A stretch of DNA of 63,997 nucleotides, filler included, from Basidiobolus ranarum (lineage: Eukaryota), in the NCBI GenBank assembly GCA_040143965.1. It is 11 parts of 11 records of this genome, joined end to end, with 100 filler letters (N's around TTAATTAATTAA, not from the genome) between each part and the next. Parts side by side here need not be neighbours in the genome. Positions count along the whole stretch, not along the records: positions 41,229 to 47,001 come from JASJQH010008377.1; 10 more parts are not named here. One strand, given 5' to 3'. Each line of letters starts with the position of its first letter. Positions within the stretch are counted from its first letter, which is position 1. A program made the translations under genes and the position numbers. Positions 5,803 to 63,997 of this stretch are shown here, piece after piece. The notes beneath the pieces are model-generated. The model saw nothing but the letters and a program-made list of their open reading frames with translations. It was not told the DNA's origin and did not search any database.

Positions 5803-5902
5803 NNNNNNNNNNNNNNNNNNNNNNNNNNNNNNNNNNNNNNNNNNNNTTAATTAATTAANNNNNNNNNNNNNNNNNNNNNNNNNNNNNNNNNNNNNNNNNN
5901 NN
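5803..5902. other. Artificial 100-bp contig spacer; also at 11701-11800, 17593-17692, 23481-23580, 29368-29467, 35252-35351, 41129-41228, 47002-47101, 52874-52973, 58745-58844
   Basis: N44-TTAATTAATTAA-N44 (stops in all frames). Contig lengths between spacers fall monotonically: 5798, 5792, 5788, 5787, 5784, 5777, 5773, 5772, 5771. Confidence 0.99.
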
Positions 5903-11700: not shown

Positions 11701-13838
11701 NNNNNNNNNNNNNNNNNNNNNNNNNNNNNNNNNNNNNNNNNNNNTTAATTAATTAANNNNNNNNNNNNNNNNNNNNNNNNNNNNNNNNNNNNNNNNNNNN
11801 TAGATTGCTTACATCTTGACAAAACTATAAATGTCAACTTTCAACTCAATAAATCAACAAGTGAAAACCACCAATTTCTCTAATTCTCCAAACCACTTCC
11901 GACAGGCTCCCAAATACTTTAACAAACCTCAATATCTTCCTATGCTAAGCACTTTTTTCAACATTCTGCACTGTTGATGTAACTGTACTAATATTATTAA
12001 GATGGTAAAGTATATTAGTACATATCATTTGATTAAATATGTAGTGATGGGTTTCAGCACAACAGCTAAAAATACATGAGAATAAATACAACAACATCAG
12101 TAATATATTAGAAGAAGTTTAATTTTATGCCAATGTAGTAGCACCAGCAAAGACTCTGTATTTGAAAAACTATATCCACAAGGAATAGCTCTGAAAATTA
12201 GTTATCACCAAAAAACCATGAAAACTAAGCAGTATATAGAGTTACAAGAGCGTATGCCATATAGGAATTTCTCTTATTTCAGTTTTTAATGTGCATGCTA
12301 CGAGGTAGATTCATTATGCGTAGCTATGTAATGAACAACATTTATTTGATTGACTCCAAATGCTTCCTATTCACTGCTTGTATATATTCTTTTATATATT
12401 GCGTTCTTATTGATATATGATTCGAATAGATTCAGAATCTCATTTGTATTCATCCGAATAGTAGGATTTCTATATCACGTAGCAGTAGTTAAATTATGAG
12501 CATTTTTCTATACTTTTGAGCTGAACATACATTTACTGTCATTTCTAAAGATTACGCGCCCATATATATACACATTTACAGAGAGTGATTTTGTTTTCGC
12601 ATGGATAAGTAAATGGACCTGTCAGAGCAAAATTCACAACCTGTTACTTGATACTTCAATTCATTGTATTTACGCTTAGTACAAAATAAAACAGACATTA
12701 TCTGCAGTACATAGATTCTCGATGTCATGCTACTGTTTGACATTTTACTACTGGACTGGTTCAATATAGCAGGGGTAAAAGTAATACCGTCCTTAATACA
12801 AATCTATTAGGCAATGTGTACTTGCACTTGTAATATCGTTGCAATATATATTGTCGCTATAGCAGGCTTCATCCAGAAATTTAGTCATAGATCTTTCAAA
12901 TAGATGTGATTAATTTCATTTGACAATGTGAACTTTTATCGGGAACAGAACCGGTAAAGTGATCCGATAAATGGTGTGTATATATTCCACAAAGGAATAT
13001 TTGTTTATTTATAGATACATTTGAAAGTTAAAAAATTGGAACTTGAACGATGCATTTTCCTTTCTCTCGTAAATCAACCAAGAATAACGAGCAAAAATAA
13101 TGGATTGATGACGTTTTATTCTTAAATTAAAGAGACATTCAAACAACAGAATTTCGTTCACTACTGTAGTTCAACACTAAGCTCTTTGGTAGAGTTTGTT
13201 TGCTCTTGCACTTGATTGTCCTATGAGTCGATTCATTAATTGACATACGTGCTCTACTAGTCAATACGGCATAAACATTGATGCATAAGTTAAGAAGAAG
13301 CAAAATATTTACTGGAGTAATTCTCCAATTGGTGGACATGGTATTGAATTCGTAACAATGAATATGAATCGCGAAGTACAAAAATCTGAGTAGTCAAAAT
13401 CTATTTAGTCTAATTAGCAAAAGCAATCGCCACCAATGTTGCACTGGCGCTGCCTTCTGAGCGGCATACTGTTTGTACTCATATACTTAAAAGTATCGGT
13501 TTGTAAACAAAGTAGTTGGTACGAGAGTTAATTGGCTAAGTCACTTCCAATAACGAAGTATCATAAATCTCCATTAATACCAAGTTTATGTACATTAAGC
13601 TACCAAATCCTCGACAAAAATGGAGGCAGATTTAATTATTTTGCCATATATGGCTCTGCGGTCATACACCAATTATAATAGTTATCAATAATCAATTACT
13701 TATTTTCGTGTCACCACACTATTACTTATAATAAATTCATCTCGCGTACAGACACTTTTCGAACCCATCTAGAGCTAGGTTACAGGTTAACACTCGCTTA
13801 ATTCTCCATCGTAATTGCAACAATTTCATTTCCTCCTC

Positions 13839-22301: not shown

Positions 22302-23480
22302 TTATTTACCGAATGCATTCGGCTTATATATAGCGCTTGGCAATTTCAAGAGCGCATGCTTGTTGTAAGGCTTAATAATGTAATCGGTCATCCCCGATTC
22401 AATCGCAAGATATCTGTACTCTTCCCTTGCATTTCCCGACACTCCAACGATAGGAATACTTTCTGACCCTGTTTCTGCTTCGATTTCGCGAATTCTCCGA
22501 GTACAATCCAGCCCTCCCATAACTGGCATCTCAAGATCCTAGATTATCACAGTTAGGAATGGTAAACGTTATGGTAGGTGCTTAGTACTACGCAAGAGTA
22601 CAAATCAAATTGACAAACCATCAAGATCAATCTGTAGGTCGTATTTTGCATCAATTCCAATGCTTCTGCACCATGTTTGGCTCCCTCCACTGTATATCCA
22701 GCCAACTCTAGTTGACGCTTCAGTACCCGTTGATTGATTAAGTTGTCTTCAACAACAAGCACTGAGACAACATATCGATCTTTATACGGCACAGGCTTGG
22801 AATGACCCTTTGCGGATACAGTTGTACTCATCTCTGTGTGCGTCAACGGAGCTGACTTATCCTGCAAATGACTGTTATATGCTGAAGAGTGCTTCCTGTA
22901 TCCATACTTCTCCTTGCCAGTGTGGCTTTTCGTTGCAATTGCTTTGGTTTTTTTATGTACCTCATCTCCTTGAGACGGGTCGACTGATTTTGTGTGACGG
23001 TTCGAAGATCTGTAGGGTCCAATGTACCTCAGTTCAACTGCATCACGTGAAGATTCAGCGTTTAAATGTTCCTCCAAAAGATCCTCAATCTTTGCACTGA
23101 CTCTGTCACATTTGATAAAGCAAGTAAACGTCGTTCCATCTCCTTTAGCAGATTCCACTAGGATTTTGCCACCATGGAGCTCGACTAACCGTTTACTGAT
23201 AAACAGGCCTAGGCCACTACCACCAAACTCCGCATATGTACGTGGATTGGCTTGCGCGAATCGTTGGAATAGCATTGATTGCTCTTCTTTAGACATACCA
23301 ACCCCACTGTCTTTGATTGCGATTGAGATGTAAATCGCTTCGAGCAACACTGAACTTGTTATTGAGTCTTTTAACTCCTCTTTCTCTGACGTCAATACGG
23401 AACTCCCACTTCGAGACTGGGTTTCTTCAACCTGAGAAGCCGATCTCGAGTTGAGTATCTCCCCATACCCTTCCGGTGAC
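22302..23480 (-). CDS. Hybrid histidine kinase, 3' part (HATPase_c plus receiver); 5' end lost at the gap
   Basis: DSGVGM, FQRFAQAN and GGSGLGLFISKRLVELHGG boxes; receiver VLVVEDNLINQ...LILM/DLEMPVMGG...KP across intron 22539-22618 (GTTTGT...TAG). Confidence 0.93.
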
Positions 23481-25640: not shown

Positions 25641-27130
25641 AATTCATACCAAATCAATTTTTTTTTGTTTGGAAATTTTGTAGCAATCTTTTTGGGCCTC
25701 TGTTATTGCTTGCAACTGCAGTAGAGACAGTTTCAGCCCTATATTAGTTACCTACCTTTTGAACAGGTAATATAGCTCTTGCCCTCTCTACAATGGTCCT
25801 ATTAGCATGTTTTGCACCTCCAATTTGTTAAGGAATATAAAGTACAGTAGTTTGTTACTTGACTTCATGATTAGAACAAATGCTAGCTAAGTTTTTAGAG
25901 CAGTATTTTACACCTTTATCATAACTCAGTACTCTTTTTTTTTATGCTAATTCTTTCTCTACCAAAGCTCTGCAGTGCTTGAACTTAATCTAAGCTTCAG
26001 AGTTTGATTGGAAAAAATACCCAGCTTTATCTTGTTTTGGCCTCAATAAAGGTGATAATGTTCAAGCTGCCACCTAGTGAGGTATTATACATGGGCCCAC
26101 ATAGGTCAGAATGAATTGGGCAAATATTTGAGTGGATTTGATCTCTCCTGAGCTTGAAAATGGCTTTCTGTGAGGCTTATAATTTGTAACCTTCATTTAT
26201 TGATATTCTCAATTTCTAAACCTGAAACAAGCTATTTTAAATTATTTGCGCTAGTGTTTGTTCCCCAATATGGCCTAATCTGCTATGGCAAGAATGATAG
26301 CTTACCTTGCTGGTTTTGGCCAAGTATATTTTCTCAGAATGCCAGTTGTTGATTTCTAGCTTGTATAGCTTTTGAGTTTTGTTCCCAATAGCTAATCTTA
26401 TATTGTTCTGATCTGTGTGAGTGTATGCAGCCTTGCTGAACATCAAATTTAATCCTTGAGCAATTGCTTGACTCACTGACGCAAGAATCTTATCTATATT
26501 TGATACATAGATTGAGTCATCCAACTTTGCAGATGGTGTAACTGAATTTCATTCCAAATTGAGCACATCTGTGCCCTTACCAACTGCATGCAGTGTATAG
26601 TAATAACCTCAGTAGACTCTCCCTGTTTTGATTGTTTTAGGCTGCAAAACCAATCTGTCTTCTTTTTCATAAGCTGTAAGGTTCCTGAATCAATGAATCA
26701 ATGCACCATATTTTGGAGTCCTCCTTAATGGTTATTAAACTGGGTAAAAACCATTAGATGATCCCTATTGGTACTTGCTTGATTTGGCAAAAATTCTCTT
26801 TCTGCAGTGTGTAACCAAATAACCTGGTTTCTTGATTTCATATTAGAGGCACCATTATTCAAGCATGTTGGATGTTTTACAGCTCCAAAAAAAATACCTG
26901 ATGAGCATTGTTTTGCTGAGAATTGGGTGCCTTTAGCTCCTGATTCAAAAGCTTGGCTCCAAATTATTCCATTGATGATAGCTCTGATCATGATTCAAGG
27001 GCAATTATGAGTTTCCCAAACTTAAGGTGCTATTGACCTATAATCAACGAACATGTATATCAACTTCATCATAGTAAGGATTGAAGGGTAAAGCTCCAAA
27101 ATTTTGGAGTTTCATCTGCTTAATAGTAGA
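25640..27130 (-). mobile_element. Ty1/copia gag-protease-integrase remnant
   Basis: Minus-strand motifs WCIDS (protease), HSRLGHIG (pre-integrase), HSDLCGPM and ANRTIVERARA (integrase), with multiple stops. Confidence 0.85.
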
Positions 27131-35351: not shown

Positions 35352-38300
35352 TACTTTGGCAAGAATCTTTATTGATAACTGGCATTGATCAGACTGAGGT
35401 CTGATCTAGGAATACATGGGGCTTATATAGATATTGCAAGGTGAAACATAATATACTGAATAAGGAATATACTGTGGCAAGTTTGAGAGTTGGAGTGTTG
35501 GGAACTACAAGGACTAATACAAAGAGGGATGATGTAAGGATGATCAGGGGACCTTCCATGGAAGGTCTTGGCAGAAATACACTGTGTGTGGGATGACATG
35601 ATTGGTTGGGTTTGATGGAATGTTCCAAAGAACATCACTTCCTTATAAGGTAATCTGGATGAACTGACACCAGATTGCCAAGAAGGGATGGCACAGCAGA
35701 TATGATGTCATAATCTAATAATAGGGGAGTTCTATTTGTAGTGGATCAGTACACCAAGATCAGAATCAAGGCAGTATCCCCTTCTTTAGTGATGGCTTCT
35801 AGACATCATAGGGCCAGGTTTCTCTGCATAGGCTTCATGAAACTCCTGGCAGAGTTCCTTGGAATTGGAAAGATTTGTTGCTGGCTCCCATGATTGATTA
35901 TTTGTTGAGTAACCTTTCCAGTCCACTAAATATTGCAACTTGCATCAATAAATTCTGGAATCTAGGATTTTGCTAACTTCATATTCAGGGTGTTCTTCCA
36001 CTTGGAGTGCTTGGGTTGGGTGAATGGATTGGCCCTGGAAGGTGTTTCTGGTATGTGGCTCTAAGAGAGACAAATGGAATACATTGTGGACTTTGAAATG
36101 GGCTGGGAGTTCAAGGCAGAAGGCTACTGAATTGATTTGTATAATAATCTTAAAAGGCCTTAGTCTTTTATGATCAAGTTTATCACAAGGCCTGGTGGTC
36201 TTGATATTTTTCTGGAGTAACCAAACATAATCTCCTGGCTTGAGATCTGGGCTTGGCTTTCTTTTCTTATCAGCAAAGTTCTTGTGTTGTGATTGAGCAT
36301 GTTCCAACTTGGATATTTATTGTTTATGGATGTCCTTAAGGAAAGTGGCATGGTCTGAGGCAGCAGGGCAACGTAGATTGGATAGTGGGTGAATTGTGAA
36401 ACAAGGATGGAATACATAATTTGCCAAGAAAGGAGTTTGCTTTGTTGAGGTTTGATAAGAGTTGTTGTAAGCAAATTCAGCCAGAGGCAAGAGTTTGTCC
36501 AATTATCTTGATTATAGTTGATAGTGCATCTCAAACATTGTTCCAAAACTTGATTGACTCTTTTGGTTTGGCCATCAGATTGGGGATGGAAGGCAGTGGA
36601 GAGATTGGCAGAGATACTCAAGGTATGGAGAAGACTTTTCCACAATTTGGAAGCAAACTGAGGTCCTTGGTCAGCAATGATAGTTTCAGGGAGTCCATGT
36701 AGGTGGAAGATGTTTTGAGTTACCAATTCTGCTGTTTGTTTTTCATCAATTGACTTGTTGCAGGGCAGAAAGTGGGCCATCTTTGTTAGACGGTCAACTA
36801 TTACCAGAATTGAATCATATTTGGCAGACATGGGCAGATCAGCTATGAAATCCAGGGATATGGATTTCCACTGCTGATCAGGAATTGGAAGTGGCTGCAG
36901 GAGGCCATAGGGCTGATGTCTTGGAGTCTTCACTTGAGCACAAGTATCACAGGTGGAAACATTAGTCTTGACAAATGCAAACATTTTGGCCCACCAATAA
37001 TCCCTGGATGCCAACATATATGATTTGGCAACACCAAAGTGTCCTGCCAGTGGTGAGTCATATCTTTCCTGCATGATTTTGAGTCTAGAAGTGTGGTCTG
37101 GAATGTAAAGGTGCTTCTTATAAAATAAGAGATCATTGATGATAGAGAAATGGCAGTACAGGTTCAAGCTTGAGAGGTCTTTTGGTGTTTCCTGGGCTTT
37201 TTTGATTGATATACCAATGCATCTTCAGATTGGAGTGTGTGGATGTCTTCATGGAATGTGCTTGAACTAGGAAGAGAAAGGGCAGTTGCACTAATTTGAA
37301 GTTGGTGGGGCTTCAGTAAGGAAGTATTTTGTTGGCCAAAGGCCTCATCCCCTTCTTTAAGCTGATATTGTGCTCTATTTGATAAGGCATCAGGCTTTCC
37401 TTGCTGGCTACCTGGTCAATATGTAATCACAAAATCAAAACTGGCAAGAAATAATGACCATCTTGCTTAACAATGGTTGAGAACTTTGGTTGTACTAAAA
37501 TACTCAAGATTCTTGTGATCACAATGACTGTGATTTTGTGATTTGCCCCATCCAAGTATTGTTGCCATTGTTCAAATGCAGCAATAAATGCTAAAAGGTC
37601 CTTGTCATAGAAGTCATAGTTGATTACTGCAGCAGAGAACTTTCTTGAGTAAGAGGCAACAGGGTGCAGTAAGTTGTCATCATCAAACTGTGATAGTACT
37701 GCTCCTAGAGCAAAGTTGGATGCATCAGTTTCAACAGTAAATGGCTTGTCTAGCTTGGGATGCACCAGGATTGGTGCTGATGTAAAAGCACTCTTAAAAG
37801 TTACAAATGCTTGTTGGCAAGATGGGTTCCAGTTGAATGGGAGTTCTTTCATTGTGAGATATGTTAATGGAGCGGATATTTTGGAGTAGTTAATTCTGCA
37901 GCATAAGTTGATTCAGGTTTTGACCCTTGTTTAAGTGCATGGAGCTTGGTAGCTGAGGTTCTTTCTTCATCTGCATTTGTAAATATGGCTTCCAGTTCAG
38001 CAAGAAAGGCAAGGAAGTTTGAAAGAAGTGGTGATTGACTTTCCATCAAAGGAGCAAACCAAGACAGAGCTGTTCCTGCTAAGAGTGTTCCCACTAAGCC
38101 TACTTTTGTTTGGTCAGAGGGGTAGCAATGGGGATGCAACTGGATGATAAGCTTTACTTGGTTAATAAAACCACAATAGTTTTGCCAAGTGCCATCAAAT
38201 TCATTTGGTAAGGAGATTTTGGGTTCAAGAGTTGGAATTGCAGTATAGTTGGGTGGATCTGGATTCTGTACTTGAGCAATGGAAGTACAAAGTTCTTGAT

Positions 38301-38740
38301 TTTCTTGCTGAAGCTGAGTAAGGCCTTGCATAACATCTTCCATTGTGAGGGCTGGTGTAGACATAATACTTACTATGCTGGGAGGGGAAAGTTTTAAAAA
38401 ACCACAAGTTTCTCTAGGAATGATAATCACAGTGCAATGTCCAACTTTCTGTTGAAGAAATGGTTGGTGCCTTGACAAAAGAATATGCTGGTATCAATGT
38501 CCTTTGATCTTGATCAAGTACTAAAGCTTCTTTGATCAAAAACAGCTGTAAACTCAACCAGTTGTGTCTTTACAAGGATGCACTTAGAGCAATTATCCAA
38601 AGGTGGAAGGTACCTTTGCCTTAGCAGGGAAGCTTGGGAAAGATGAGGATTAAGAGGGAAGCCAACCTTGGGGGGTTTCAAGGTTGGAGAACAGGGATGG
38701 AGAGAAGTCTACAGGCAAGTATTAGTAGTTTTATAAGACT
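35352..38740 (-). mobile_element. Chromodomain-bearing Ty3/gypsy element, degenerate and internally deleted
   Basis: gag (EPKISLPNEFDG...LAGTALSWF), RNase H (ETDASNFALGAVL), integrase (HFGVAK, CDTC, SLDFI, VDRLTKMAHF, FHPQSDGQ), chromodomain (EYEVSKILDSR..YLVDWKGY..SWEP), PPT AAAGAAGGGG, and a 3' LTR from 35773 to the contig start. Confidence 0.95.
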
Positions 38741-43077: not shown

Positions 43078-43449
43078 GTCGGTTGGTCGCATGTTTCCTT
43101 TCATTAACCCATTTACTGTTACACTCTTCATTCCAGCTTACACTGCATATCATTCTTGTCTTGCGGTGTTTTATACATATATTGTATTATCACCTCTTGG
43201 GTTTCGTCCACAGTAAAAGAGCAAAATAAAATAAACCGTTATCCCGCGAATTTGTTGCCTAATGTTATATCCAATCCAAGCTTTCTGTAAACAACATACT
43301 TTTCCAGGCATATTTTTGATGATTTTGCTAAAATTTCTCAGGTAAAAGTTAGTTGACATGGAATATCCAGATTTCATGACTATCAAACAGATTATAAATC
43401 CAGTTGGCTTTTTCAAGTTCATTAATCTTCGCAGAGTTATTTCTGACAT

Positions 43450-45850: not shown

Positions 45851-46545
45851 ATGCGCAAACACCTCTTATACATAGGAAGTTGTTGCAGTGCCATGTATAT
45901 ATATACACTTTCCTCTTTGTAAAATCAAATCCTTAGATAAAACTGTGTTACATATCAATAGCGTATCTGATTTACGAAAATTCTTTCTGCGATTCATCAT
46001 CATGACTACAAAATTTTTAGTCAGTTCCTTAATTTTATTACGCAACGCGGTAATTCTTAAGCCAATAACTACGCTTAGAGGTTTTGTAAACATTTGTAGA
46101 TATGGTTGTATGATTCATATACACACAGAAACAAGTTTGCTAATGCTACCGTTGAAAACACCAAGATCTTAAGAAGCCATGGTAAATACTAGTGCGCTTG
46201 ACTGCATAATCCGTGCTTCATGGGCAGTCATAGGTTGCATACCGTAAACAATACGACTTGTATTAAGCTCACACCTGACAGGTCATTTTTGTTTGCAAAG
46301 ACCTAAGATACCATAAATGGAAGAATACATCTCTGTAACTCACCATGCTCTCTTCCAGGTTAGAGGGTATCAAACGGTTCAGTTAAGTGGAATCAAAAGA
46401 CGGTACCGTAATTTTGTTGGCAGTAGTAGCAGTAGGGTTAGGGTTAGTATTGAGAATCACTTACTGTGATCAATCTTGTAAAGGAGTAAAAAGTAGAATG
46501 GGATTGTTATGGAATCCATCTACCTACATATCCATCCATACCTGT

Positions 46546-46625
46546 AAGAATCTTTAAATTCGCTCGCCAGAGCGAGGAACAACCACATTCTAGGTGGCGC
46601 GTTGTCCTGTTGGACAAGAGAAGAT
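46546..46625 (-). ncRNA. Candidate Fanzor omega-RNA scaffold
   Basis: Minus-strand hairpins TTGTCC-AACA-GGACAA, GCCAC-CTAGAAT-GTGGT and TCGCTC-TGGC-GAGCGA. Loop AGAAT (46591-46587) is complementary to ATTCT (46551-46547). Overlaps the 3' end of the Fanzor ORF; boundaries are inferred. Confidence 0.6.
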
Positions 46626-47001
46626 ATCGGGTCGTTCATTCCCGGACCAGTTGGGTTGAAATGAACATCATATTTTTAGCCGCAAGCACGTCTCGATTTC
46701 AAAATATATTACAATCGTTGCAGATCAATATATTGTAAAAGGTACGTTCTTGGACTCTATGGTATCTTAAATTTCTTTGATGGCATTCACAGCAAACCTA
46801 ATTAAAAGAAAAATTTAGACACTTAAAGTTACATAAAACTTGCAAAGATACCTACGGACGATGTCCTGAACTCATTAATGTCCAGTAGTAATAGTTCCCC
46901 TTGTTTTTCACGCTTTTTGAGATTTTTGTAAATCAGCTCGGAAGCTCCTCCTCTTCTTCCTCTAAACCTCGCGTAGGTACTTCCTCTCAGACCATCCCCG
47001 A
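46554..47001 (-). pseudogene. Fanzor1 (eukaryotic TnpB-family RNA-guided nuclease) 3' end, with one intron; disrupted copy, 5' part lost at the gap
   Basis: Exon 46999-46856: GDGLRGSTYARFRGRRGGASELIYKNLKKREKQGELLLLDINEFRTSS. Intron 46855-46798 (GTAGGT...TTAG). Exon from 46797: VCCECHQRNLRYHRVQERTFYNILICNDCNIF*NRDVLAAKNM, i.e. RuvC-II Glu, a CxxC/CxxC zinc finger and RuvC-III (W)NRD..AA.N. After a frameshift near 46650: WSGNERPDIF. Confidence 0.88.
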
Positions 47002-47101: not shown

Positions 47102-47652
47102 AAGGGTAGCTTCTGGTGGTCCCTTTGGCTCTATTTCTTCTCCTGCAACAAATCCCCAAAGGTTCTTGTCTTCTAGCACCATTTGCATCTTGAACTTCCA
47201 AAGGTGAAAGTCTTCAACATCAAACTTCACAGTGGATGCAAACACTTTGGTAATAGTACTGGTAGATATTCCTCCAACAGCTAGCTTGGGGTTCACAAAG
47301 TGATAGAAGTGTTGAGGGGACTTGAAAGTATTTTGGACAAAATTTGGATTTGTGAATTGGACTCTGAAGTTTTATTGAATTGAATCTGTCCTGTTTATAG
47401 TTAACTATGAAATAAGACTCTTGGTTGTGCTTAGATCATAACAAATATGCCTGCTAAGTGTGGGTGGAAATTTGAGATGATTTGCAGAAATTTTGCAAAA
47501 ATAGTGAAAAATGGTAAAAGTGATCTAATTGGTATTTCTATCAATTTGTGCAATAAACATACATTTTTGAGTGACAGAATTGTGTGCTAAATAATCATAA
47601 TATGAATAAACCATCTACTAAATAATCAGTTGCTATTTACCTAATTTCAACA
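47102..47652 (-). mobile_element. Ty1/copia 5' LTR (47301-47652, family A) plus start of gag
   Basis: 352-bp LTR, TGTTG...TATCA; gag VKFDVEDFHLWKFKMQMVLEDKNLWGFV. Confidence 0.92.
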
Positions 47653-48353: not shown

Positions 48354-49763
48354 AGTGAGATATTTTTCTCAGGCCTGCATAGGTCATAGTGAATCAGGGC
48401 AAAATATGGAGTTGATATGATCTCTGCAGAGCTTGAAAAGGCTGTCTGTGAAGTTTTTCATATATGCAACCTTTACACAGATCTAATTAAATGATATTTC
48501 CAACTTGTAAGCCAATAAGATGCTGCTTTTGGATCACTTGAGTCAATTTGTGTTCCCCCACATGCCCTAATCTTCTATGCCACATTTTACAGCTTATTTT
48601 GCCATTTTGTCTAATTTTGCATGCTCAGAATGCAATTTGTAGATTACTAAATGTTATAAGTTGTGAGATTTGTTCTAGCAGCTTATTTGAAACATATTTA
48701 TCTGTGATAATACATCCAGCCTTGTTGTACACAAAATTTAGTCCTTGAGTTGTTGCTTGGCTTACTGAGAGTAGATTCTAGGTTATATTTGGTACATATA
48801 GTACATGATCCATTTTTGCTGATGGTGTAGCCAAATGTTGGTCCAAATTGGGCACAACTGTGCTGTTGCTAACTGCATCTAGTGCACGGTCTCTACCTAA
48901 GTAGACATTCCTTGTTTCAATGGGTTTTAAGCTGGAAAACCAATCTTTCTTGTTAGACATATACTAGGAAGCTCCTGAATCAATGTACCAGGTTTCAGAG
49001 TTTTTTTCAGTTGTTACTGATAGAGCAGACATTAAGAGATGATCCCTATCAGTGCTTGCTTGATTTGCTTGTTGCAATTTTAGCTTTTTGGCAAAAACCC
49101 TTTTCCTGCAGTCCTTGAATGAATGGCCTGGTTTCTTGCACTACAGTGGATGACCTTTAGTCTCATACAGTCCCTCAAGTATTTTCTGTGCACTTTGGAT
49201 GTTTTGGCTGACTCTATGTGTCTCAATTGAGAGTCTCTGAGTTGTGGACAAAGTGTGGAGAGTGCTTTTCTATGATTTTTGTTTATGACCAGGATAGCTT
49301 CTGGTGGTCCCTTTAGCCCTATTTCTTCTCCTGTAACCAATCCCCAAAGGTGCTTGCCTTCTAGCACTATTTGCATCTGAAATTCCAAAGGTGAATGTCA
49401 TCAGTGTTTGGTAATAAATGTGTTCAGGGGACTTGGATATGTTTTAGGCAAGATTTAAATTTGTAAATTAGACACTGTGGTTTTATTGAAATAAATATGT
49501 CCTATTTGTTGCTTACTATGAAAAAGGATGGTTGGAAATGCTTAGAACAACACAAACATGCATATTAAGCATAAGTGAAAGTTTGAGATGATTTAGAGAA
49601 GTTTTGAGAAAATAGTGAAGATTGGTAGTGGTGATCTAATTGGTCTTACAATCTGTTGGAGCAATTAATAGATATTTTTGAATATCACAATTGAGTGCTA
49701 AATAATTGGAGTATGAATTAGTTAACTACTAAATAATGAGTTGCCATTTAGCTAACTTCTACA
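48354..49763 (-). mobile_element. Ty1/copia gag-pol remnant with 5' LTR (49412-49763)
   Basis: gag MQIVLEGKHLWGLVTGEE; protease WYIDSGAS; WHRRLGH; HYDLC. The 352-bp LTR belongs to family A. Confidence 0.9.
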
Positions 49764-53426: not shown

Positions 53427-53815
53427 TGGGCTAATAGCCTATTGGGAGAACATGGGCTGTTTGGAGGAACTTTAGAAAGTGGAGTTGTGAATAGCTTTGT
53501 GAGATAATTATTTATTGTCCAGAAATGAAGCATTCATACATTTTGGGGGAAATTCAGAAAACTAACACTGGGGTTGTGTTCAGAACATCTGTGGGAGTAA
53601 AATGAGCAAATTTGGGGTAATTTGGATGAGTTTGAAATTTGCAATATGGAAATGCTAATTCTCACATTATTCATATATATATATAATATATGTACAAACT
53701 TGCAGTTAAGTAATATTTGACTAAGTGATCTTAACTAACTTATATGTGATATATGAAATAGTTAGATATATAACAATAGAGATAATATATGTGATCAAGG
53801 CAATAAACTTCAACA
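53427..53815 (-). mobile_element. Copia-type 5' LTR (53440-53815) with PBS-like GGCTATTAGCCCA
   Basis: Minus strand begins TGTTGAAG at 53815 and ends CCCAATA, followed by a GGTTATGAGCCCA-like motif. It truncates the adjacent LINE RT. Confidence 0.6.
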
Positions 53816-54972
53816 GAGCCCTCTTTATTGACAGTAGAGCCAGAATCCTCCATCCTGAATTCACTTCCTGCTTATACCTAGTGCCCAATGGTGTGGTGCA
53901 AGGTTCAGTGCTAGGTCCTCTACTTTTTGTGATATTTCTCAATGATTTGCTTCCGCTATATCCTGGATCCCTGCTTACTTTATTTGCTGATGATATCAGA
54001 GTCTCTACTTCTCAGCCCCAGCTGGATACTGCCACCATTCAGAGATACCTTTCAGGAAATAACTTGGAGCTTTTTATTGCCAAAACAATTCCAATTGTTT
54101 GAACCACTACCTTGTATGATACCCAGCTTCCTCAAATGAACCATGCAACTTATCTAGGCTTTTCATTTACTCAAACTGGCATTGATATAGAGAAATACTT
54201 GTCAGTTAGAATTACCTTGGCTAAACAGGCTGCTCGCAAGTTACTTGCTGTTACACCACCCAATACATCTGATCATTGCTGTCAAAGACTTCTCAAGCAG
54301 TTTGTGATACCAGTTCTAGAATATGGAGTACATCTGCTCCCACTCAACTAAGGAGACTACTCTAAGCTTGATAGATTCATCAGCTACTGCCTCAGGCTGC
54401 TGATGCCTGACTTGCCTGAGACTCCATATGATCATGATCTGAATGGAACTTTTGGATTCTTCCCATATCTTATTTGAATAGTCTTACTCAGGGCAAGATT
54501 TCTACTCCAACTAAATGACTGCTAAAATCCACTGATTAAGAAGTGGCTAGCCACATCTTCTTCAAATGCATTATCATGCTGGAAATTGATACAAGATGAT
54601 CCTTTGGTTTCTGAGTTAGCTTTGCAGCTGCATGAAACAAAAAAGCCTAAAATTGTTGCTATAGACTACCAGCTAGACCTTTGGAAGCAATACCTTGCCT
54701 CTAAGACACCTTTCTTAATTCCCATTATTCCAGGTTTTTGTCCTATTGTCCATCTAGTTTATGCTGAGTACCTTCATTTCTGCTTACCACCTTTGCCCCT
54801 TAACACTATATTTACATCCTCTGAACTTGATTATATTGGTCATCAAGTTAAGTATGGATATGATCCAATACTGTCACAACATCTTAAAAGATTGATGTCT
54901 TGATTGTCACTTTGTTTAGATTAGTATATAAGCTAAATAAAGTCCACACCATCGGGTTCTTTTCATCCCCCC
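53816..54972 (+). mobile_element. Non-LTR retrotransposon (LINE) RT C-terminal half, frameshifted
   Basis: GVVQGSVLGPLLFVIFLNDL...LFADDI, TYLGFSF and QFVIPVLEYG. Confidence 0.92.
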
Positions 54973-58744: not shown

Positions 58745-60078
58745 NNNNNNNNNNNNNNNNNNNNNNNNNNNNNNNNNNNNNNNNNNNNTTAATTAATTAA
58801 NNNNNNNNNNNNNNNNNNNNNNNNNNNNNNNNNNNNNNNNNNNNCTTGTTTAAGAAAGTAGACAAACATTTTAAAGAGCAACATGGATATAGAGATAGAC
58901 AGAGGCTGGAGCACCAATATACAACCACATTCCACTTGTCTAATAATCATACCGAGTGTTGGATATCCTCACAATATCTAATCCTCATGCCATCAAAGCT
59001 CGGCTTTCGGATATCGACGGTCGGCTATGGGGGAATCATGGAGTTAAATCATTCATTGCCCAATTTAGAAAAGGTAGAACAACTATTCCAATAAGGTGAT
59101 TCAGTCAGAATTATGGATTTGGCTAGTGCAAGTCCTTATTTATTATAGAATTTGGCTAGTGTATGGCTATTAGTATATATATACAATTAGGCTAGTTCAT
59201 TTCCTTAGTTCGATTAGATTAAGTGGCTTTGATGGTAAATCCAAATATATGCAATATGTCTCGTTATGCATGTATGCTCATGGAGTTTTCGTATACATCT
59301 AAGTCATTGAAACCATATAAATACTGAATGTACCAGATGTTCCTTCTTCCCCCACATTTTTTGTTAAAGCTAGGTCTAACGGCGATATGGCCAATAAGAA
59401 TGCAATAGAGGCCTACAAGTTTGGATAAAGATAGCACATGGATGATACTCCTTCTGTATGTAGATAACACCTACAACTCTAATCGATAATTCGCATTTTT
59501 ACATCGATCGAAATAGTTCATCCTTTCAACGATCTCCTTTTTGATACCCATGTGAGGGTGAGGGGGTTTTTTCAACTAAATAATACATTTCTCTAATTCA
59601 TCACCGTCATATCAGAAAAACTATTGGTTTCATGCATTCTTCTGAATCAATTCCAATCCTATGTTTCTATATTATATAATTTACCATAGTAACCTTGCAC
59701 TTTCTCTCTCTCTCTTTCGTACAAATTTCACTTTCTCTTTTATATAGTAGCATTTGTGAATTGCCGAAATACATCCTCTCAAACATATCATTGTTTAGAG
59801 TACAAGCACAAAGAATAGCCATTCTCTTTTATATAATGTTAATTGTCCAAATTTGGCTAGCCTGAGGAATATACATATTTGCAGACAAAGACATCTTTAA
59901 ATTTATCGTAGTTACTGTACGTATAAGATTATTTGATATAGTCGTCTTCTCTGAGAATAGTGAATTTACGGTTTCAACATTTTTTTAGGGGGATTAATAT
60001 TTTGTTCGAAGCCAACTAAGACTTCCTTATTAATTGAGCTAAACGTTAAACCACTCTCATAATAATACTTGGATAAAA

Positions 60079-63000
60079 ATGACAGAGGTATTACGCCATA
60101 AAACAGACGAGTTAAATCGCGAGAGTACATCCACCTCATCGGAGAACTTTCTTTATCATATACAAGCGCTGCTGGGTCTAGCTGAAGAAGAAAAATTTGA
60201 TGATTTACTTAAGATGAATTATCAATCTAGTGGAAACGAGATAGAAACCAAAATCGAATCTTCGATAAGAAATCTTTTGGAAAAACAAACACGTTTGCAA
60301 GAAGAATTACGGCAATGTCAAACAGCGCTACAAGAGTCTTTAATAATTTCACATACAAGTGGTTCATTGAATACACATGGATTTCTTGCTGTATCTTCCG
60401 AAGATTTACTGCTTAATGAGAGAACACTTGAAGATGCATCCCAAGTAGCTTTCGTACCCCAATCTATTGGCGTAGCTAATATGATGTCCAACTCTAAGAG
60501 TGAGAATAGCGCATATACATCCGACGATATCTCTGAGAGCAGTTGCTTGAACTGCTTGAGACAATGCACTGATATAGCAAACGCGATTAAAGATGGCGAT
60601 TTATCTAGAAGAGTGACTTGCTCTCACGAGACTGGTGCCACATTGGCGTTAAATCAAGCCATGAACGATATGGCAGACAGGTTAGAATCGCTTGCATCCA
60701 AAGTATTTCATTTTGGCCATGAAATGGTAGAACTTGGGAAATACTGTAGTCAAGGGGAAGTAGAACACTGGGAAGGAACATGGAAAGAAATTGTTATTAA
60801 TCTCAACAAGGTGGCAAGTGAACACAGTGAACAAGTGAGTGATATCGCGGAAGTCTGTACTGCGGTCGCCCGTGGAGATTTGACGAAAAAAATCACGGTA
60901 GATATTAAGGGTGAAACATTTGTATTGAAAAACACCATCAATACGATGGTAGATCAATTGAACTCGTTTGCTTCCGAAGTTACCCGGGTCGCTCATGCAG
61001 TTGGAACAGAGGGAAAGTTAGGCGTTCAAGCAGAAGTTCCTGATGTTGACGGTACCTGGAAACTACTGACTGATAACGTAAACCTGATGGCGTCAAATCT
61101 TACTGGACAAGTAAGAGATATAATTCATGTCAGTAAAGCTGTGGCGCGCGGTGATTTATCCAAAAAAGTAACAGTAGACGTGAAAGGGGAGATACAAGAA
61201 TTAAAGGTGACCATCAATACAATGGTGGATCAGCTACAGACTTTTGCGACTGAGGTTACCAGAGTTTCTCTAGAAGTAGGAACAGAAGGGAAGCTCGGTG
61301 GTCAAGCTATTGTCAAAGATGCTGGTGGCACATGGAAAGATTTAACGGAAAATGTTAATCTTATGGCTTCTAATCTTACAAATCAAGTGCGCGATATCGC
61401 CAGTGTAAGTAAAGCTGTAGCTAGAGGCGATCTTTCCAAAAAAGTAACTGTCAATGTGAAAGGAGAAATTCAAGAATTGAAAATAACTATCAATACTATG
61501 GTAGATAATCTTCAAACATTCGCATCAGAGGTTACCCGAGTGGCTCGTGAAGTAGGAACAGAAGGGAAACTTGGAGGTCAAGCAGTGGTCAAAGATGTTG
61601 GCGGTACTTGGAAAGATCTGACAGAAAATGTTAACTTCATGGCCTCTAATTTGACAGGCCAGGTACGTGATATTGCTAATGTCAGTAAAGCAGTTGCCAG
61701 AGGTGACCTCTCCAAAAAAGTAACCGTCAACGTCAAAGGAGAAATCCTTGAACTGAAGAATACCATTAATACGATGGTGGATCAGCTTCAAACCTTTGCA
61801 TCGGAGGTTGTACGTGTAGCACGCGAAGTTGGCACAGAAGGTAAACTTGGAGGTCAAGCTGTGGTTAAAGATGTTGGCGGTACCTGGAAAGATTTAACGG
61901 ACAACGTTAATCTCATGGCTTCTAACTTGACTGGCCAAGTACGAGATATCGCCAATGTCAGCAAAGCAGTTGCACGAGGTGATCTCTCCAAGAAAGTGAC
62001 CGTCAATGTCAAAGGAGAGATTCTTGAACTGAAGAATACAATTAATACAATGGTGGACCAACTTCAAACTTTTGCATCCGAAGTCACTCGTGTTGCTCGT
62101 GAAGTAGGTACAGAAGGTAAACTCGGAGGTCAAGCTGTAGTCAAAGATGTAGGTGGCACATGGCAAGACCTTACCGATAATGTGAATATGATGGCATCTA
62201 ATCTTACAAATCAAGTAAGAGATATCGCTAGCGTTAGTAAAGCAGTAGCTCGAGGTGATCTCTCGAAGAAAGTTACAGTCAATGTCAAAGGTGAAATTCA
62301 TGAATTGAAAGCAACTATCAATACTATGGTTGATAACTTGCAAACTTTTGCATCTGAAGTCACTCGAGTTGCTCGCGAAGTTGGCATTGAAGGCAAACTT
62401 GGCGGTCAAGCTGTGGTTGAAGATGTTGGGGGTACATGGAAAGATTTGACAAACAACGTCAATATGATGGCTTCAAACCTCACTAATCAAGTGCGCGACA
62501 TTGCCAGTGTTAGTAAAGCGGTTGCTCGAGGAGACTTATCTAAGAAAGTTACAGTTGATGTTAAAGGAGAGATAAACGAACTCAAAGAGACAATTAACAC
62601 AATGGTTGATGACTTACAAACTTTCGCTGCTGAAGTCACCAGAGTGGCTCGTGAAGTTGGTAAAGAAGGTAAACTTGGTGGTCAAGCGGTGGTGGAAGAT
62701 GTTGGCGGTACCTGGAAAGACTTAACAGATAATGTCAACATGATGGCCTCTAATATTACAAACCAGGTCCGTGATATTGCCAACGTTAGTAAAGCGGTAG
62801 CTCGAGGAGATCTCTCTAAAAAGGTCACCGTAAATGTCAAGGGTGAAATTCAGGAACTCAAAGTAACAATCAACACAATGGTTGATGATCTTCAAACTTT
62901 CGCATCGGAAGTTACGCGCGTAGCTCGTGAAGTAGGCACTGAAGGAAAACTCGGAGGTCAAGCTGTGGTCAAAGATGTTGGCGGTACTTGGAAAGATCTG

Positions 63001-63997
63001 ACAGAAAACGTAAATCTTATGGCTTCTAATTTAACCGCACAGGTTCGTGATATTGCCAGTGTGAGCAAAGCCGTTGCAAGAGGTGATCTTTCCAAGAAAG
63101 TAACTGTTGATGTTAAAGGAGAAATACAAGAACTCAAATTCACAATTAATACCATGGTTGGTAATCTACAAACATTTGCATCAGAAGTTACTCGTGTAGC
63201 ACGTGAAGTCGGTACAGAAGGTAAACTTGGAGGTCAAGCTATTGTAAAAGATGTCGGTGGTACCTGGAAAGACCTAACGGATAATGTTAATCTGATGGCT
63301 TTCAATCTCACTGGCCAAGTACGTGATATCGCTAATGTCAGCAAAGCAGTCGCCCGAGGTGATCTCTCCAAGAAAGTAACCGTCAACGTCAAAGGAGAGA
63401 TTCTTGAACTGAAGAATACAATTAATACAATGGTGGACCAACTTCAAACTTTTGCATCAGAAGTCACTCGCGTTGCCCGTGAAGTAGGTACAGAAGGTAA
63501 ACTTGGAGGTCAAGCTGTAGTCAAAGATGTTGGCGGTACCTGGAAAGATTTAACGGACAACGTCAATCTTATGGCTTTCAATCTTACAGGCCAGGTACGA
63601 GATATCGCCAATGTCAGCAAAGCAGTTGCACGAGGTGATCTCTCCAAGAAAGTGACCGTCAATGTCAAGGGAGAGATTCTAGAACTGAAGAATACCATAA
63701 ATACGATGGTGGTCCAGCTCCAAACTTTTGCATCCGAAGTTACACGTGTCGCTCGCGAAGTAGGCACCGAAGGCAAACTCGGTGGTCAAGCTGTAGTCAA
63801 GGATGTTGGCGGTACCTGGAAAGATTTGACGGATAATGTCAACTTGATGGCCTTCAATCTCACTGGTCAAGTACGTGATATCGCCAATGTTAGTAAAGCA
63901 GTTGCCCGAGGTGATCTCTCCAAGAAAGTGACCGTCAATGTCAAGGGAGAGATTCTAGAACTGAAGAATACCATAAATACGATGGTGGTCCAGCTCC
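60079..63997 (+). CDS. Group III (Nik1/Os-1/Drk1-like) hybrid histidine kinase, poly-HAMP N-terminal region; runs off the window
   Basis: Open frame from ATG at 60079, missing from the ORF track because there is no stop. The 92-aa unit [81 protein letters not shown] has TW motifs exactly every 276 bp from 60778 to 63814. The kinase domain itself is outside the window. Confidence 0.92.

Follow-up and report, generated by a model that had tools for sequence, protein, structure and literature searches.

Near the end of one contig in a stretch of Basidiobolus ranarum DNA (63,997 nt; GenBank assembly GCA_040143965.1; hereafter the window), the minus strand carries the 3' end of a gene for Fanzor1, a TnpB-like RNA-guided nuclease, and, just past its ancestral stop codon, a candidate core of a Fanzor1 guide RNA (omega-RNA). 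The window joins 11 contigs in descending order of length, from 5.8 to 5.2 kb, with spacers of the form N44-TTAATTAATTAA-N44 at 5803-5902, 11701-11800 and so on to 58745-58844. Since these are separate contigs, features that appear to run across a join are not contiguous in the genome. The Fanzor locus lies on contig 8 (41229-47001), and all coordinates are those of the whole window. The gene is truncated by the contig end at 47001, which leaves its last ~120 codons visible; the RuvC-I aspartate and the REC/WED domains, in the N-terminal two thirds of the protein, would lie beyond this contig end.

The frame comprises two exons separated by a spliceosomal intron (Table 1) and, as judged from its motifs and relatives, is the 3' end of a genuine, intron-bearing Fanzor1 gene. 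Exon 1 contains LDINEFRTSS, which agrees with the RuvC-II glutamate motif ((I/V)(D/N)E(F/Y)xTS) and falls, in an alignment of 13 family members, on the almost invariant E180/S184 column, and exon 2 encodes a C4 zinc finger (TNB, or OrfB_Zn_ribbon) followed by the RuvC-III RD (CCEC...CNDC...NRD). Residues C187, C211, C214, R220 and D221 hardly vary across this alignment, which comprises 13 of the 152 proteins collected and displays the Fanzor1 pattern DPG...IDExKTSK-C4-WNRDxNAxKNMM...GxGRPxxF followed by a short variable tail. The 52-aa piece encoded by exon 2 aligns with Pfam PF07282 (Cas12f1-like_TNB) at an E-value of 0.0011 and 19.5 bits, under the 26.3-bit cut-off, and a PDB search with the protein family returned SpuFz1 of Spizellomyces punctatus as its sole match (E 0.011), over the C-terminal WNRD...GRPxxFSR. 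The closest relatives, 83-88% identical in a word-indexed search, are three 'hypothetical proteins' from Rhizopus microsporus (129-256 aa), and a HMMER search with the 256-aa relative retrieved 605 cluster representatives at E <= 0.001, 218 of them at <= 1e-10 and 13 at <= 1e-30. An earlier reading of this DNA from sequence alone (the sequence-only reading) had assigned the frame to Fanzor, and these data bear it out. Neither exon 2 at near length nor the antisense open reading frame (ORF) at 46490-46735 had a match in the protein search, and prokaryotic genome contigs gave 58 pattern matches, none of them a relative, and no match to a 23-nt stretch of hairpin 3, described below.

This copy carries two lesions within 160 nt, and the ORF is broken, as the sequence-only reading had also noted. 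A nonsense codon occupies the position of a tryptophan conserved in the relatives. Further downstream, the relatives read ...FISTQL followed by WPGNERSDIFSRPTGQRAT and a stop; at the window locus, the corresponding tail is in another frame, which shares 2 nt (46649-46648) with the one before it, so that this copy has a frameshift. As it stands, the frame stops at 46638-46636, whereas the ancestral frame reaches the TAG at 46592-46590. Reading of the TGA as tryptophan under a variant genetic code was considered and rejected, as the copy is also frameshifted and the gene models of the relatives have a tryptophan codon at this place. On the evidence of these lesions, the Fanzor1 copy is a pseudogene. 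The gene models of the three closest R. microsporus relatives are C-terminal pieces whose tail frames differ from one another, and the family is made up mostly of fragments (among the 150 representatives listed, most span 66-450 aa and a few 690-1180 aa), which suggests that decay is widespread across this Fanzor1 subfamily.

Three hairpins had been proposed at the 3' end of the gene, and all three are present on the minus strand. Their placement over the last codons of the Fanzor frame is correct once the frameshift is allowed for and incorrect for the frame as it stands. The ancestral stop sits in the hairpin 2 loop; codons make up hairpin 1 and the 5' arm of hairpin 2, and the whole of 46625-46593 is, by alignment with the relatives, coding tail that is now frame-shifted. 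Hairpin 3 lies beyond the stop.

Fanzor1 omega-RNAs are encoded at or just after the stop codon of the nuclease gene (Saito 2023, PMC10432273), which is where the sequence-only reading had expected a guide RNA. By eye, the published fungal examples share a common layout (PMC10432273, PMC3627910): (U)UCC; a 5-7-bp stem-loop (stem-loop 1, SL1) with the loop YUAYCG; a 6-20-nt linker, often with (C)AUUUAAU or UUAAU; and GGU in SpuFz1, or CAG/GUAAG or GUAUU in Mucorales. The SpuFz1 protein is reported to contact U5-C6-C7 of its RNA as well as the UGGU bases at stem 2 (Saito 2023, PMC10432273). SL1, with seven base pairs, is described as the conserved part of the RNA and the remainder as variable, the smallest scaffold being that of PpFz1 (Xu 2024, PMC11423790).

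At the window locus, the minus-strand segment 46579-46537 follows the same order. It begins 11 nt past the ancestral stop on the same strand, as in SpuFz1, ROr-2 and ROr-3. Its UUCC abuts the stem of hairpin 3 at 46575 (the minimum-free-energy (MFE) variant of this hairpin spans 46580-46558, with 9 bp and one bulge), and CAGGUAUG follows 18 nt after the stem, compared with 12-20 nt in the comparators. The layout UUCC, stem-loop, linker and CAGGUA matches published Fanzor1 RNAs or 3' ends in a comparison made by eye only. Our comparators were SpuFz1, PpFz1 (two loci), SPu-2, ROr-1, ROr-2, ROr-3, PBl-1, PBl-2 and MCi-1, read from the supplement text of Saito's table and from the consensus elements of Bao and Jurka 2013. 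A Helitron-type 3' end (a hairpin followed by CTRR) was considered for hairpin 3 and rejected, as no CTRR follows it by eye.

We used motif scans to gauge how rare this arrangement is; their counts are not unbiased probabilities. The window holds a single match to the combined motif and none of 100 shuffles holds any, and CAGGTAWG has one match in the window against 3.6 expected. A loop-agnostic descriptor (TCC, 0-2 nt, a hairpin of at least 5 bp, 11-21 nt, GTAWG) yielded six matches in five places on both strands of the 64 kb, a frequency at which a match within 30 nt of the stop is expected about once in 1000. The strict version of this descriptor (at least 6 Watson-Crick bp) matches at this locus only, in 128 kb of searched strand.

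The SpuFz1 omega-RNA (PDB 8GKH) resembles the candidate core in its position directly after the stop, its 5' UCC, its stem-loop 1 and the short linker that follows; the base of its stem 2 carries GGU, to which the CAGGUA of the window locus may correspond, and it forms no pseudoknot. The SL1 of SpuFz1 has 7 bp and the loop UUGUCG, whereas that of the window locus has 6 bp and the loop UGGC, and the linker measures 6 nt in SpuFz1 and 15-18 nt here. The right end of SpuFz1 (a 30-nt inverted repeat) and its variable 14-15-nt guide were defined from 42 loci, 134 ghost loci and small-RNA-seq, whereas the window locus is known from the sequence of one broken gene. PpFz1 of Parasitella parasitica and ROr-1 of Rhizopus oryzae have the layout UUCC/UCUCC - SL1 - (C)AUUUAAU - CAG/GUAAG or GUAUU, next to which the window locus reads, by eye, UUCC - hairpin 3 - AUUUAAAG - (7 nt) - CAG/GUAUG; their loop, UUAUCG, is absent here and their linker is 12 nt as opposed to 18. 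They belong to another Fanzor1 subfamily, the PDB search of the window family having returned no PpFz1 match and four short family peptide motifs being absent from Saito's table. SPu-3 of S. punctatus has, by eye, an N-terminal CCHC knuckle and a C-terminal ...WNRD.NA..N...GERP..F in common with full-length relatives of the window protein, such as P0017. As at the window locus, the stop of SPu-3 is followed at once by a hairpin, and CAGG and a G/A/U tract poor in C come next. The UCC/YUAYCG module is absent from SPu-3, and the end of its terminal inverted repeat lies ~165 nt past the stop. The proteins of ROr-1 to ROr-4 and SPu-1 to SPu-3 (Bao and Jurka 2013) were examined as possible close relatives and none is close to the window subfamily, SPu-3 being the nearest by eye.

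We read the locus, with a probability of about 55%, as the decayed 3' end of a Fanzor1 gene together with the ~65 nt of non-coding sequence that come directly after it, in which 46579-46537 would represent a 5' core with the layout of fungal Fanzor1 omega-RNAs. Hairpin 3 would then be the equivalent of SL1, and hairpins 1 and 2 and the pairing of AGAAU in the hairpin 2 loop with AUUCU in the linker would be incidental; by analogy with the characterized RNAs, hairpin 1 and most of hairpin 2 would lie 5' of the RNA start. A scaffold of this kind would extend beyond 46546, to at least ~46525-46490 if it resembles SpuFz1 or PpFz1, or 130-300 nt further if it resembles the published Mucorales consensus elements. 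In ROr-1, ROr-2, ROr-3, PBl-1 and MCi-1, the stop is directly followed by the UCC-SL1 core, but the end of the terminal inverted repeat is a further 130-300 nt away (Bao and Jurka 2013, PMC3627910); the ROr-1 element ends ~195 nt past its CAG/GUA motif. The PpFz1 RNA runs at least 28 nt past the CAG/GUAAG motif (Saito 2023, PMC10432273). In Saito's table, the 3' ends of the RNAs given for two PpFz1 loci are identical at 14 of 17 positions by our by-eye count, and these ends may be element-internal sequence, not flanking DNA.

Several candidate stem 2 pairings compete at the window locus, and none of them stands out as convincing: hairpin H4, a long-range inverted repeat that encloses hairpin 3, and a by-eye pairing, 6 of 7, between GGUAUGG (46542-46536) and CCAUAAC. 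The arms of the long-range repeat, 15 nt each, pair at 13 of 15 positions by Watson-Crick rules and at one by G-U, and 4 of 300 shuffles reach 13/15, a modest and uncorrected significance. In the intact element, the omega-RNA would have been transcribed from the element 3' end and would have bound the RuvC/TNB face of the nuclease through its UCC and SL1, with sequence past the right end serving as the guide.

A number of observations weigh against an omega-RNA core at this position. The missing canonical SL1 loop is the main point against a working omega-RNA: the loop reads UGGC (or UCUG in the other register), not YUAYCG, the stem has 6 bp, not 7, and TCC-N7-TTRTCG with one mismatch has 24 matches in the window, none of them in 46300-47001. 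Activity of the RNA is doubtful because the loop lacks the conserved YUAYCG. The window protein subfamily is nearer to SPu-3 than to PpFz1/ROr-1, as judged by eye from the N-terminal CCHC knuckle, and the module absent from the SPu-3 3' end is also absent from three MCi-2 ends. The linker motif AATTTAAWG alone is at chance level (4 matches in the window against 4.4 expected), the rarity of the motifs is partly by construction because the patterns were framed after both sequences had been seen, and the by-eye basis of the comparison counts in the same direction.

Folding energies point the same way. The 99-nt interval 46527-46625, which spans the three hairpins and the proposed 20-nt guide, folds at -26.9 kcal/mol, with a z-score of -1.55, and 17 of 200 dinucleotide shuffles fold as well; longer frames give z-scores of -1.5 to -1.8, about equal on both strands. 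Among 344 windows of 99 nt from the contig, 10% have an equal or lower z-score, which makes that of the interval unremarkable, and only 2 match its raw energy or go below it, a value that reflects the high local G+C content (53% in 46558-46625, 38% in the contig). An Rfam search of the contig, with E up to 10, returned only a weak snoRNA-like match at 43161-43224 (18.9 bits, against a 50-bit threshold). No second Fanzor copy was found in the window by blastn of the whole contig, tblastn with the three relatives or short-word blastn of 46400-46660. The candidate is probably a remnant of an omega-RNA core, centred on hairpin 3.

These same observations lend themselves to another explanation, namely that no RNA gene exists here, the hairpins being incidental structures in the G+C-richer coding tail and 3' untranslated region (UTR) of a dead transposon gene and the likeness to omega-RNAs being coincidental or that of a remnant too decayed to count. 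The energies within the range of shuffles on both strands, the lack of an Rfam match, the absent SL1 loop motif, the post hoc motif tests and the nonsense codon and frameshift all fit this view. We nevertheless hold it to be rather unlikely, as UUCC, a perfect 6-bp hairpin, AUUUAA and CAGGUA occur within 55 nt of the stop in the place and order of published Fanzor1 RNAs, and the strict descriptor is unique in the strand searched.

The sequence-only reading had proposed a larger structure: a 79-nt scaffold at 46625-46547 made of all three hairpins, a pseudoknot between AGAAU of the hairpin 2 loop and AUUCU at 46551-46547, an element right end at 46546 and a 20-nt guide at 46546-46527. Its named elements all exist, including the complementary pentamers, the drop in sequence complexity after 46546 is real, a shifted window (46542-46640, minus strand) reaches a z-score of -2.48, 12th of 344, and TnpB and Fanzor2 RNAs use such a pseudoknot (Yoon 2023, PMC10711439). 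Like the proposed RNA, those of ISDra2 TnpB, IS607 TnpB and Fanzor2 are encoded at the nuclease gene 3' end and take their guide from DNA beyond the right end; they need a 5-nt pseudoknot between a loop and guide-adjacent bases, whereas characterized Fanzor1 RNAs are described without one, as in SpuFz1 (Saito 2023, PMC10432273), and Fanzor1 appears to have lost the pseudoknot (Yoon 2023, PMC10711439). The premise of a pseudoknot would thus not extend to Fanzor1, the class of this gene, although AGAAU and AUUCU here can pair.

Moreover, hairpin 2 is missing from the MFE folds, and 28.8% of 5000 shuffles have a 5-nt Watson-Crick complement to its loop within 60 nt downstream, as do 17.9% of 2102 60-nt windows: both the folding energy and the AGAAU:AUUCU pairing are at chance level. 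Characterized Fanzor1 RNAs have their start at the stop codon or beyond it, whereas the proposed scaffold would begin 35 nt within the ORF, and hairpin 1 and most of hairpin 2 are coding tail and stop. Of the three hairpins, only hairpin 3 resembles an element of known Fanzor omega-RNAs, within the UUCC-hairpin-AUUUAA-CAGGUA layout. The right end placed at 46546 is within the linker, and CAGGUAUG begins 2 nt further on. Wherever a comparator has the corresponding motif, it appears, by eye, to be internal to the scaffold or element, and an element end at 46546 is improbable, since the conserved CAGGUA lies beyond. The general idea of a guide-RNA module at this 3' end is correct in kind. The scaffold of three hairpins, its pseudoknot, the 20-nt guide and a right end at 46546 lack support and, by analogy with the comparators, are probably wrong, and we consider that structure very unlikely.

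A further explanation, which we also consider very unlikely, takes CAG/GUAWG for the 5' splice site of a 3'-UTR intron (~46541-46473). The RNA would then be processed by the spliceosome or compete with it, and would not be a plain contiguous omega-RNA. In favour of this view, ACAAG and a pyrimidine tract are found 69 nt downstream, and the gene has an intron of its own, of 58 nt. Eight Mucorales comparators (ROr-1/2/3, PBl-1/2, MCi-1 and PpFz1 x2) have a GUAWG- or GUAUU-type motif after the linker, and ROr-1 and ROr-2 have, by eye, a branch-like UACUAA/UUAUUAAC and YAG 50-65 nt later. Against it, the protein-contacted UGGU of SpuFz1 at the same place is enough to explain why GGU is conserved, PpFz1 binds its RNA in unspliced form, GUAAG being part of the short stem 2, and the splice signals were called by eye only. 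In the general form of this scenario, which we consider highly improbable, the omega-RNA core of Mucorales Fanzor1 elements would be followed at a fixed place by a CAG/GUAWG 5' splice site and an intron-sized segment, and the guide RNA would be matured or regulated by the spliceosome. Splicing would then have one of two outcomes: the scaffold would become linked to sequence closer to the distant right end, or the RNA would be destroyed and the mRNA favoured. Eukaryotes would thereby have a counterpart to the conflict between intron and guide RNA in bacterial IStrons.

Table 1. Features of the Fanzor1 locus and its 3' region, in window coordinates
Feature	Position	Strand	Basis or remark
Fanzor1 exon 1 (partial), GDGLRGSTY...LLLLDINEFRTSS, RuvC-II glutamate motif	46856..46999	-	tblastn against relatives P0003/P0004/P0005, 73-82% identity
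Spliceosomal intron, 58 nt, GT..AG	46798..46855	-	Sequence; relatives read ...TSSVCFECH... uninterrupted
Exon 2, C4 zinc finger and RuvC-III, VCCECHQ...CNDCNIF*NRDVLAAKNMMFISTQL	46648..46797	-	In-frame TGA at 46701-46699 where relatives have W
Frame-shifted C-terminal tail, WSGNERPDIFSCPTGQRAT	46593..46649	-	tblastn, 16/19 residues identical to the end of P0003; family C-terminus ...GxGRPxxF plus short tail
Hairpin 1 (H1), UUGUCC AACA GGACAA, in the coding tail (codons S-C-P-T-G-Q)	46602..46617	-	Fold and tblastn tail
Hairpin 2 (H2), GCCAC CUAGAAU GUGGU, loop contains the stop	46582..46598	-	Absent from minimum-energy folds
Ancestral stop TAG, within the hairpin 2 loop	46590..46592	-	P0003 ends exactly there
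UUCC directly 5' of hairpin 3	46576..46579	-	Same place as the protein-contacted 5' (U)UCC of published fungal Fanzor1 omega-RNAs
Hairpin 3 (H3), candidate SL1, UCGCUC UGGC GAGCGA, perfect 6-bp stem	46560..46575	-	Fold; sole strict descriptor match in the window
A/U-rich linker AUUUAAAGAUUCUUA, includes AUUCU 46551-46547	46545..46559	-	By-eye comparison with ROr-1 and PpFz1 linkers
CAGGUAUG, sole CAGGTAWG in the 64-kb window	46537..46544	-	Place of CAG/GUAAG or CAG/GUAUU in comparators and of UGGU (base of stem 2) in SpuFz1
C-poor low-complexity tract, 2 C in 35 nt	46512..46546	-	Trinucleotide entropy in the lowest 0.9% of the window's 35-nt windows
Hairpin H4, 12 bp and internal loop, candidate distal stem	46491..46525	-	Fold; competes with the long-range inverted repeat
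Long-range inverted repeat, starts at the stop codon, encloses hairpin 3	46494..46592	-	Arms 46592-46578 / 46508-46494

Other sequence features accompany the locus. About 150 nt downstream of the Fanzor stop, 46433-46447 (+) holds 2.5 copies of TAGGGT (CCCTAA on the minus strand), which resemble a telomere repeat, and a perfect UACUAAC at 46449-46443 (-) overlaps the 5' edge of the CCCTAA tract on the minus strand. Several Mucorales Fanzor1 3' regions show, by eye, a branch-like motif and YAG 50-70 nt after CAG/GUAWG. A 107-bp repeat, detected by blastn of contig 8 against all 11 contigs, occurs at the start of contig 8 (41229-41335) and at that of contig 3 (11818-11924) with 96% identity, and its position at contig starts suggests a dispersed repeat that broke the assembly.

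The contigs have fungal gene content, including phosphoglucose isomerase, an MFS/TRI12-type transporter, a HAMP-repeat hybrid histidine kinase and copia and Ty3 fragments. The kinase frame at 60043-63996 (+) is open for 1318 aa and continues past the window end; it has 11 or more HAMP domains and resembles group III hybrid histidine kinases. On a different contig, 22556-23479 (-) holds a separate fragment with HATPase_c and a receiver. Fragments of Ty3/gypsy (integrase, RNase H, gag) and of copia-type gag or reverse transcriptase are located at 35948-38493 (-), 26240-26548 (-), 47102-47371 (-), 49083-49397 (-) and 53725-54099 (+), and their occurrence on several contigs indicates that the assembly is repeat-rich. 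The copia gag ORF at 47102-47371 adjoins the Fanzor fragment across a join, and the two are not contiguous in the genome.

As one broken copy of an element that is common, the locus contributes little by itself. In the published Mucorales consensus elements, unlike in SpuFz1, the right end lies 130-300 nt past the RNA core, a distance that bears on how these elements would take a guide from flanking DNA. A literature search combining Fanzor and Rhizopus found no description of the RNA of a Rhizopus Fanzor. If the core identified here is real, the recognizable Fanzor1 omega-RNA layout of UCC, SL1, linker and GGU would extend to a Rhizopus subfamily of undescribed RNA, with a different SL1 loop, and this would bear on which RNA features the nuclease needs.

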